In this document: positions 45,394-46,728 of the stretch, piece after piece | Layout of the letters: every line of letters begins with the position of its first letter | How positions within the stretch are numbered: the first letter of the stretch is position 1 | The notes under the pieces: generated by a model | The model's input: only the letters and a program-made list of their open reading frames with translations | What the model was told of the DNA's origin: nothing | Database searches by the model: none | NCBI GenBank assembly: GCA_964461105.1 | Contig: CAYWSY010000001.1 | Location: 8,714 to 72,713, forward strand | Length of the DNA stretch: 64,000 bases | Direction: 5' to 3' | Source: an uncultured bacterium | GTDB lineage: Bacteria > Chlamydiota > Chlamydiia > Chlamydiales > Rhabdochlamydiaceae | Program-made: the position numbers and the translations under genes

Positions 45394-46728
45394 ATGATTG
45401 TAGATCCTTTATTAACGTTTCGCCAGACCGCAGCTGAGGCTCTTGGCTCTGTCGCGGTAGAGTTGTTTCCGAAAACTCTCCTTGTTCAGGGCTGCGGTAC
45501 AAGTAAATTATTTTTTTACGATCTCATCCTGCCTTTTGAATTTAAATCTGAGATCCTTCCCGTTCTTGAAGAGGCGATGCGTGTTAAGCTCAAGCAGCGC
45601 CCTGCAATCCGCACGCTGGAAATGATGTCTAAGAATGCTGCCCAGAGGATGGATCATCAAGGTCAGTGGCTGATTGCCGAGCGACTGCGAGAGGTCCCCA
45701 AGGGTTTGGTTCAGATGATCGAAATCAATGGATTTGTCGATTGGTGTGAAAAATCTTTTGAAGAGACATGGGATCCTCGCCTGGTATTTAAGTTGGTAGA
45801 AGCAATCTCCATTCAGATTGAGGGGCGGCAAGGGGTTCGACTTATCGGTGTCCTGTATTCGGAAAAAGATCAACTTAAAGAATTTGTTAAACAATCTCCC
45901 CGTTTTGCGCCGCTTTCTCATGAATCTTTAATCCAGTCGCTTCAGTTGTTTGCACAAACCCCTTCTTTAGGGGAGGGGATATGGGCATGGCTTCCGAATG
46001 GCGAGAGGGTGCGCCAGATGTTTGTAACGTGGTGGCATCGTGAGCATAAGCTGCAACAATTTCAATGTGTTGCGACGCTGGCAAGTCAAATTTCTTCTGA
46101 AAGAGGTGACCCGGGCGAAGCGATCACGCTTGCTCATCGAGATCTTTTTTTATCTCATGGGCTGAATCGATTGGCAGAGATTTCATCCGTTACCAAGGAT
46201 CTGGAAACGCCAGTTCAGGAAGGTCTCTTGGATGTCGCTTGCGGCACCACCGATCGAGCCCATCTATTTTGCCGGAACGAGGAACTTTTAAATGAATGTA
46301 TTTCTTCCTTGCATTTCATCACCAAAATGCCTAAAATCCTATGTTTTGAGTTCCAGATAGTTTTATATACCCACAGTGGTGGAGCTCAGAAGAAGGGAGC
46401 CAAGGGGCAGCGTCTATTAACCCAAGCGTTGAAAGAGGCAGCCTTAAGCTATTCCACAGAAATTAGTTCGTCTTTAGAAGAAGGGGAGTCGCGCTTGACA
46501 CTGCGACTTGCTGATTCGTTGGGGCGGTGGTGGGATGGCCCTTTTTTAAGTGTGTGTGTATTGCCTCAGCGTCAAGCTGGTGTGACTCTACTAAAGAGGT
46601 CAGCATTTGGTGTCTTAGAAAGGCTGATCGCCTTGTTCTTGGAACAACCAAAGCTCAAGGCAATCAAAAGTGTAGACGAATTGATGAACGCATTGAACTG
46701 GAGTAAAGACTCTGACTTTGAGAATTAA
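45394..46728 (+). CDS. Threonyl-tRNA synthetase-like protein, truncated and catalytically degenerate (pseudo-ThrRS)
   Basis: By-eye alignment to ThrRS N2 and class-II core: FFYDLI ~ FYYDVD, LPNGERVRQ ~ W..G, DRAHLFC ~ DDAHIFC, GVLERLIALFLE ~ GSMERFIGILTE. TGS and anticodon-binding domains are absent. Start uncertain because the ORF track start overlaps tRNA-Val. Confidence 0.6.
   Translation: MIVDPLLTFRQTAAEALGSVAVELFPKTLLVQGCGTSKLFFYDLILPFEFKSEILPVLEEAMRVKLKQRPAIRTLEMMSKNAAQRMDHQGQWLIAERLREVPKGLVQMIEINGFVDWCEKSFEETWDPRLVFKLVEAISIQIEGRQGVRLIGVLYSEKDQLKEFVKQSPRFAPLSHESLIQSLQLFAQTPSLGEGIWAWLPNGERVRQMFVTWWHREHKLQQFQCVATLASQISSERGDPGEAITLAHRDLFLSHGLNRLAEISSVTKDLETPVQEGLLDVACGTTDRAHLFCRNEELLNECISSLHFITKMPKILCFEFQIVLYTHSGGAQKKGAKGQRLLTQALKEAALSYSTEISSSLEEGESRLTLRLADSLGRWWDGPFLSVCVLPQRQAGVTLLKRSAFGVLERLIALFLEQPKLKAIKSVDELMNALNWSKDSDFEN

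Follow-up and report, generated by a model that had tools for sequence, protein, structure and literature searches.

In the stretch of DNA analysed here, 64,000 nucleotides (nt) on contig CAYWSY010000001.1 of an uncultured Rhabdochlamydiaceae bacterium (hereafter the window), the position upstream of infC, the gene for translation initiation factor 3 (IF3), is held by a gene related to that for threonyl-tRNA synthetase (ThrRS). This gene, here called X, lies on the forward strand at 45394..46728, runs from ATG to TAA and encodes 444 amino acids plus stop. A sequence-only reading of the window had already placed an open reading frame of about 445 amino acids in the thrS slot at this point, and the measured gene, followed by infC, rpmI, rplT and pheS, agrees with it. 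We consider it probable that X descends from the original thrS and has been kept under purifying selection as a folded, non-catalytic pseudo-synthetase, whose selected function would be binding. According to this explanation, X was derived from the thrS of an ancestral thrS-infC-rpmI-rplT-pheS operon, and a second, canonical thrS would have taken over aminoacylation. The synthetic and the editing active sites would both have been lost before the families of environmental Chlamydiales diverged, and in the lineage of the window X would have been reduced to an N2-like domain and a degenerate class II core.

Homology, fold and loss of the catalytic residues

X is a true homologue of ThrRS. The NCBIfam profile TIGR00418 (thrS) matched X with E = 2.1e-20 and 73.2 bits, below its curated cut-off of 383.65 bits, and profile positions 2-225 aligned with residues 11-228 of X. 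When phmmer was run against PDB sequences, the strongest matches were ThrRS chains and spanned the N2 domain and the catalytic part; residues 99-276 of 1nyq, for example, matched residues 35-209 of X. The AlphaFold2 model, built with 17 homologues, reached a pLDDT (predicted local distance difference test) of 86.2 and a pTM (predicted template modelling score) of 0.84. Its best PDB matches in Foldseek were full-length bacterial ThrRS structures (1qf6_A, E = 5e-27; 1nyq, E = 5e-24), and dozens of ThrRS catalytic-domain entries followed at E about 1e-14. All four approaches agree with the homology to the N2 domain and class II core of ThrRS that had been seen by eye. A Pfam scan of X gave no family at E <= 10, including no tRNA_SAD (PF07973) and no tRNA-synt_2b. 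Recognition of the homology required NCBIfam, PDB sequences and a fold search.

The alignments also bear out that X has neither the TGS domain nor the anticodon-binding domain (PF03129), as had been stated before. Compared with the long forms of the family, the lost anticodon-binding domain appears as a clean in-frame gap of ~95 residues, and ~29 residues are deleted around motif 1 and the zinc Cys loop. What is left consists of the N2-like (former editing) domain (residues 1-175; 45394..45918, delimited by TIGR00418 and the 1nyq alignment), a linker with the degenerate class II catalytic core (residues 176-420; 45919..46653, from alignment and Foldseek), and a C-terminal helix and tail (residues 421-444 plus stop; 46654..46728, from the alignment of short with long forms), all on the forward strand.

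Functional residues were mapped by aligning X with E. coli K-12 ThrS and with the real ThrRS of the same genome. Of 18 functional E. coli residues mapped, 13 are replaced in X and 5 are kept. The editing site has lost H73, H77, K156 and H186, which correspond to Q11, E15, I94 and F122, and has kept D180 (D116) and C182 (C118). Among the zinc ligands, C334 and H511 are replaced by T245 and K401, and H385 is kept as H290. Elsewhere in the synthetic site, R363, E365, the threonine-recognising D383, Y462, K465, Q479 and Q484 have become K268, L270, R288, E363, R367, D381 and S386, respectively, and only H337 (H248) and the motif-3 arginine R520 (R410) are kept. Class II motif 1 is kept as well. 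The substitutions that had been read from the sequence in HxxxH, CPGH, RVRGF and IHRA all stand in this alignment, with one refinement: the catalytic motif-2 arginine is R363 in the 'HRNE' stretch, and it is likewise lost.

Measured as a ThrRS, X falls short in profile score, in the ATP residues of motif 2, in the zinc site and in the anticodon domain. Measured as an editing domain of the ThrRS, AlaX or ThrRS-ed type, it keeps the Cys alone out of HxxxH/CxxxH and K156. The loss of the motif-2 Arg and Glu and of two zinc ligands makes adenylate chemistry very unlikely. The relatives of X are similar: equivalents of C334 and H511 are kept in no family member and the editing histidines in hardly any. 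At the positions equivalent to HxxxH, family members differ from one another, with Q, R or L in first place and E, K or A in second. Because these residues are not kept even in the basal forms of 570-610 amino acids, the loss of catalysis predates the radiation of these families.

The genuine thrS, which the sequence-only reading had proposed to look for elsewhere in the genome, was found on another contig (G000:C4). It encodes 647 amino acids, scores 672.7 bits on TIGR00418, and has the TGS domain and intact motifs HSSAH, CPGC, RVRSF and VHRA. A full-scoring thrS in addition to X is also present in the relatives G248, G240, G234 and G053. Two genomes with X depart from this and raised the question whether X stands in for thrS in some genomes: in G185, thrS is represented just by stop-containing fragments at the end of a contig, and in the 88%-complete assembly of G249 thrS was not matched at all. 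The missing intact thrS is probably an assembly artefact in both. Confusion in the other direction is also to be expected. The long forms of X in family f6, of 570-610 amino acids (L036, at G234:C1:2560584-2562239, and others), score 413 bits on TIGR00418, above the thrS cut-off, but have neither the zinc Cys/His ligands nor the editing HxxxH. Automatic annotation will probably give such long members the name of a second threonine--tRNA ligase, and metabolic or essentiality conclusions drawn from it would be wrong.

An old family under selection and with recurrent domain loss

A HMMER search of 1.84 billion representative proteins (clusters at 50% identity) gave 701 matches at E<1e-30. The best 150 of the 701 all scored above 266 bits and were 333-612 amino acids long; the family therefore comprises at least 150 clusters. 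X itself scores 661 bits against the family profile. A word-indexed search returned its relatives (P0002-P0014) at 35-58% identity, with the labels 'hypothetical protein' (three NCBI records, one of them from a Rhabdochlamydiaceae bacterium) and 'threonyl-tRNA synthetase' (one JGI record). In a tree of 156 members and three real ThrRS, the family, X included, formed one clade with support 100. When 300 genomes of the phylum were scanned, X was found in the family of the window and in many other families of the order. Among environmental chlamydiae this large and old protein family is nearly universal. It is unnamed, and full-text literature searches found no description of it.

Synteny was inspected in 30 loci mostly from the family of the window, 40 loci from eight other families and 14 reduced forms, which cover at least nine families of the order. 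The order in these loci was a methyltransferase gene on the opposite strand, tRNA-Val(GAC), X, infC, rpmI, rplT and pheS, with tRNA-Val directly 5' of X in 30/30 loci of the first set and 37/40 of the second. E. coli K-12 has thrS-infC-rpmI-rplT-pheST, with 3 nt from the thrS stop to the infC start. Because the gene order is the same, X occupies the ancestral thrS slot. From this position we infer that X is the original copy and that the canonical thrS was a later takeover.

Selection was assessed by the Nei-Gojobori method in pairs with unsaturated synonymous divergence (dS), where the overall ratio of nonsynonymous to synonymous divergence (omega) of X was 0.09-0.22. Pairs within genus g3 (dS 0.24-0.60) gave an omega of 0.15-0.22 for X and of 0.02-0.11 for the neighbouring infC; the pair from genus g12 (dS 1.1) gave 0.11 and 0.035, respectively. 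In the two unsaturated pairs in which X stops 53 and 101 nt before infC, omega was 0.085 and 0.17. Since low omega persists without an overlap with infC, selection acts on the X protein itself. Of the 51 positions with a conservation of at least 80% among the 156 family members, the copy in the window has kept 45. These include residues that are conserved in the family and unlike those of real ThrRS, namely M77, N81, A82, H88, Q91, A95, K162, K166, W199, I303-F308 (ISSLxF) and W380. The sequence-only reading had favoured a retained non-catalytic function over simple decay and had named dN/dS among orthologues as a check. The range found, together with orthologues that are intact in many chlamydial families, sustains that view.

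The protein has been reduced repeatedly. The anticodon-binding domain is missing in 26 of the 156 members, for which the tree requires at least 17 changes, and several well-supported sister pairs differ in its presence. In two genera the anticodon domain evolves with an omega of 0.24-0.51, versus 0.13-0.24 for N2 and core. Across the family the size of the core ranges from 52 to 310 amino acids, and the N2-like module is near constant (median 177 amino acids, standard deviation 13). The smallest forms, of 231-300 amino acids, keep N2, the linker and the motif-1 helix. Reduced forms of 231-367 amino acids (L090-L092 in families f9 and f12, L086-L089 in f3), which have the N2-like domain, the linker and the motif-1 helix and little or nothing else of the core, stand in the same position between tRNA-Val and infC. 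The constant unit is the former editing domain, with a new conserved helix, together with a class II dimerisation element. Because the N2-like module with its new helix (M77-N81-A82-H88-Q91-A95), the linker and the motif-1 helix are the constant and best-kept part, the selected function is most likely binding by the N2-like module, probably as a dimer. Candidate partners are the acceptor end of a tRNA, some other RNA and the genuine ThrRS. The family shows how a displaced essential gene is whittled down stepwise, with loss first of TGS, then of the catalytic residues, then of the anticodon domain (~17 losses) and finally of the core, and with one module and the cis signals for the following gene left unchanged.

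The junctions of X with tRNA-Val and infC

The gene for tRNA-Val(GAC) lies at 45316..45389 on the forward strand (ARAGORN; Rfam RF00005, 65.5 bits). The assembly has 33 tRNA genes and no second tRNA-Val(GAC); CCA is not encoded. That X begins just after tRNA-Val had been noted before; the spacer from the tRNA 3' end to the ATG is 4 nt (TCTT, 45390..45393, forward strand). An alternative TTG start at 45367 falls within tRNA-Val(GAC) and homologues align from the ATG at 45394, so we take this ATG as the start of X. The 4-nt spacer leaves no room for a Shine-Dalgarno (SD) sequence. In most loci from the family of the window the gap between tRNA and ATG is 0-13 nt. In 28 loci where the gap does not exceed 40 nt, almost all of them outside the family of the window, the spacers are 4-33 nt long and pyrimidine/AT-rich, with an SD-like triplet in just 2/28. 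ATG is the start codon of X in nearly all loci. The short gap without SD sequence, together with a tRNA-Val that is single-copy and necessarily expressed, suggests that tRNA-Val and X form a co-transcript. Processing of the tRNA 3' end would then give a leaderless or near-leaderless mRNA, and X would be made from it with essentially no 5' leader.

At the other end, X runs into infC. Its stop TAA (46726-46728) overlaps the N-terminal codons of infC (RINREIR), in line with the earlier observation of a frame that is open throughout and overlaps the infC start. No in-frame ATG was found in the infC start region, neither in the frames read for the window and its closest relatives nor in the upstream flanks of ~64 loci. 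The infC translation initiation region (46700..46726, forward strand) contains an SD-like GGAG at 46700-46703 and three start candidates, CTG 46712, TTG 46718 and ATT 46724, the last of which shares its final base with the stop TAA of X. TTG, six bases ahead of the INREIR Ile codon, is the most frequent of them across families, and certain genera show CTG or just ATT/ATC there. With TTG as the start, infC (46718..47233, forward strand) would overlap the 3' end of X by 11 nt.

The tail of X codes twice. Short and long forms share the ending ...LNxS(K/N)DSxFEN*, where the asterisk is the stop. In 190 pairs, identity at third codon positions was 73% in the last 11 codons (46693-46725) versus 39% in the rest of X, and identical residues used the same codon in 90% versus 47% of cases. 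The tail is conserved at the nucleotide level because it is the ribosome-binding site of infC, which also accounts for its survival when the anticodon domain was deleted in frame. In part, this explains why X has a conserved end and why its frame is open as far as infC. We also considered LNxSKDSxFEN as a protein motif, for example a sorting signal, and rejected it, since conservation extends to the synonymous sites and since copies of X that stop upstream of infC have a different tail. In 27/30 infC-anchored loci, all but two of these from the family of the window, the stop of X is no more than about 11 nt away from the infC start region. In the same family, 7/9 examined copies that have no anticodon domain end within 11 nt of the infC start. 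Many other families have no such overlap, and in L031 and L034 it has been broken by recent nonsense truncations. Such a stop/start overlap fits translational coupling but does not prove it: ribosomes ending X would terminate on the infC start, with its SD sequence and non-AUG start held in the last 11 codons.

As a candidate coupling device, a hairpin that would sequester the SD sequence (GGAGU/ACUCU, 46700-46713) was 85% paired in 16 relatives, showed no compensatory changes and was no better than shuffles, and it was rejected as unsupported. RNAalifold gave no consensus structure for the wider infC start region. Separately, in six loci of genus g3 (L023-L028), dS was 0.09-0.27 in the last ~300 nt of X, which code for the anticodon domain, versus 0.28-0.76 in N2 and core; an internal promoter, a 5' untranslated region or some other element at the nucleotide level may therefore lie ahead of infC.

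The conserved left border of the locus is a divergent open reading frame for a putative rRNA-methylase-type methyltransferase (44564..45259, reverse strand); the PF06962 neighbour is also present at three loci of relatives (L006, L007 and L008). Downstream, infC of orthologous loci contains PF05198 and PF00707, and rpmI (47249-47446), rplT (47491-47847) and pheS (47857-48936, start uncertain), all on the forward strand, were assigned from their open reading frames and the Pfam families of orthologous genes. Rfam detected only the tRNA in 45000-48200, with no L20-leader-type or other known RNA element. A sigma-70 promoter scan of 45100-48000 found none, a scan that is uninformative for chlamydial promoters. 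There is no terminator-like site between tRNA and X or between X and infC. Between rplT and pheS, a perfect 13-bp hairpin followed by TTATTT (47862-47893) resembles a terminator or attenuator.

Alternative explanations and known systems

Several observations weigh against a selected protein function of X, at least in part. The pair from the genus of the window itself (G000/G248) has 58% identity and a saturated dS of 2.2, so its apparent omega of 0.16 is an upper-bound type of value only. As a consequence, the constraint on the copy in the window rests on family-conserved residues and not on a clean dN/dS. X evolves 2-4 times faster than infC. Its start has no SD sequence, and the X protein may therefore be scarce. 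Its isoelectric point of 6.2, equal to the family median, is unlike that of a typical RNA-binding protein, and charge, considered as a hint of RNA binding, gave no support. In the 300-genome scan an internal stop was found in ~12 of ~105 orthologues, so the function of X is dispensable in some lineages. Finally, the seven genomes of family f4 (~1.1 Mb; L039-L045), presumably Chlamydiaceae, have upstream of infC no X, no ThrRS-like remnant and no tRNA-Val; nusB and murB on the opposite strand are found there instead. Since neither tRNA-Val nor a remnant is left, the tRNA-Val-X unit was lost or never present in f4.

Some of these points would suit a pseudogene that decays slowly and is still open by chance, as would the loss of catalytic residues, the stepwise loss of domains, the orthologues with stops and the absence from f4. 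At the level of the family, decay is refuted: intact frames of 350-610 amino acids have persisted through a several-fold saturation of synonymous sites between families, omega lies at 0.09-0.22, the predicted fold is of high confidence, and the window copy keeps 45/51 family-conserved positions. We regard this explanation as extremely improbable. A relic that acts only in cis is harder to set aside, though still unlikely. X would then be open and foldable only because it carries the SD sequence and start of infC, perhaps promoters, and delivers ribosomes by termination-reinitiation, and selection would merely avoid a toxic misfolded product. The closeness of the X stop to the infC start region in 27/30 anchored loci, also in 7/9 copies without anticodon domain, the strong constraint on synonymous sites of the last 11 codons, the use of a non-AUG start by infC and the depressed dS over the 3' 300 nt in one genus all speak for it, and so do the structural nature of many residues shared with real ThrRS and the E. 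coli precedent of an infC initiation region inside the 3' end of thrS. However, in many lineages X stops 40-190 nt before infC and the frame is still intact at 430-590 amino acids; the two pairs of this kind in which dS is unsaturated have an omega of 0.085 and 0.17. Moreover, near-invariant polar residues of the family (N81, H88, Q91, K162, K166, S304, S305) are not expected from upkeep of the fold alone, and L031 and L034 tolerate a premature stop that uncouples the frames.

A new enzymatic activity we hold to be about as doubtful as the cis-acting relic. The remodelled N2 pocket (Q11, E15, N81, H88, Q91, D116, C118) might hydrolyse or bind another aminoacyl-tRNA or a small molecule, as a free-standing factor of a trans-editing-like kind, or the core might carry out a non-canonical reaction. 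Free-standing editing domains exist, namely AlaX and crenarchaeal ThrRS-ed. Even the forms of 231-300 amino acids contain the N2-like module, the single part that is constant in the family, X keeps the equivalents of D180 and C182, and the new conserved polar residues lie on helices that presumably line the former editing cleft, judging by the 1QF6 structure. Against this, the ThrRS editing essentials H73, H77, K156 and H186 are all replaced and the HxxxH equivalents vary within the family, the motif-2 Arg and Glu and two zinc ligands are gone, and neither tRNA_SAD nor tRNA-synt_2b of Pfam matches. By analogy with HisZ-HisG and Pol-gamma-B-Pol-gamma-A, X might also be a regulatory pseudo-subunit that dimerises with the genuine ThrRS through the motif-1 interface and modulates it. 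Motif 1 is the dimer interface of class II synthetases, its helix and strand are kept even in the most reduced forms (L090-L092), and genomes with X also have a real thrS where the assemblies permit a check. Yet the rest of the core, with much of the dimer interface, has shrunk to 52-80 amino acids in some lineages, and X is not co-localised with thrS; we think this role less likely than either of the preceding two.

The two junctions of X also allow a regulatory scheme, to which we give only a small chance of being correct. The mRNA freed by cleavage at the tRNA 3' end would have its AUG 0-13 nt from the 5' end and be effectively leaderless; mitochondrial 'tRNA punctuation' is a precedent for leaderless messages cleaved from tRNAs. 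Initiation on leaderless messages and at non-AUG codons is disfavoured by IF3. A rise in IF3 might then lower the translation of X as well as the coupled re-initiation at the overlapping non-AUG start of infC, with the N2-like module as a sensor or chaperone that binds tRNA 3' ends. If this IF3-sensing circuit exists, X would be a regulatory cistron and, at the same time, a tRNA-binding pseudo-synthetase of a new kind.

Collectively, we still favour the displaced thrS that was kept as a binding pseudo-synthetase. What our analysis adds is that the tail codes twice, that the anticodon domain was lost repeatedly, that N2 is constant, that selection persists without overlap with infC, that the locus is absent from the f4 genomes, and that the ATG follows a tRNA by 4 nt without SD sequence. 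In the literature searched, no ThrRS-derived dead synthetase was found described in bacteria. X is a clean case for the study of in-place gene displacement, of constraint in overlapping genes, and of SD-less translation beside a tRNA.

Compared with canonical bacterial ThrRS (E. coli ThrS, 1QF6; S. aureus, 1NYQ), X has the same N2 domain and class II fold and the same slot before infC-rpmI-rplT-pheS, and E. coli ThrS, too, holds the infC initiation region in its 3' end. X differs in having no TGS domain, no anticodon domain, a deletion of ~29 amino acids, replacement of most functional residues, a profile score of only 73 bits, and a separate genuine thrS in the genome. Two ThrRS-family genes per genome are also known from B. 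subtilis (thrS/thrZ), from cyanobacteria (T1/T2) and from the self-resistance copies BorO and ObaO. These second copies, however, are catalytically competent and conditionally expressed, whereas X cannot make threonyl-adenylate by the known mechanism. Crenarchaeal split ThrRS (ThrRS-cat and ThrRS-ed) and AlaX resemble X in being derived from ThrRS or AlaRS, in the loss of one activity, in being separate genes and in the retention of an N2/editing-type module. In contrast to X, in which both sites are degenerate and HxxxH and CxxxH are not intact, they keep a working active site. X is also comparable to HisZ (a HisRS-like regulatory subunit of ATP-phosphoribosyltransferase), Pol-gamma-B (a class IIa-like accessory subunit) and insect SLIMP (SerRS-like), which are, like X, catalytically dead class II folds under selection, in their case for binding or regulatory roles. 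Judged by its sequence, X can be classed as a pseudoenzyme of the aminoacyl-tRNA-synthetase superfamily, of the same kind as these three but not a member of their families. HisZ, Pol-gamma-B and SLIMP stem from other parent synthetases and have known partners, and none of them, unlike X, sits in the ancestral operon slot of its parent with overlapping cis signals.

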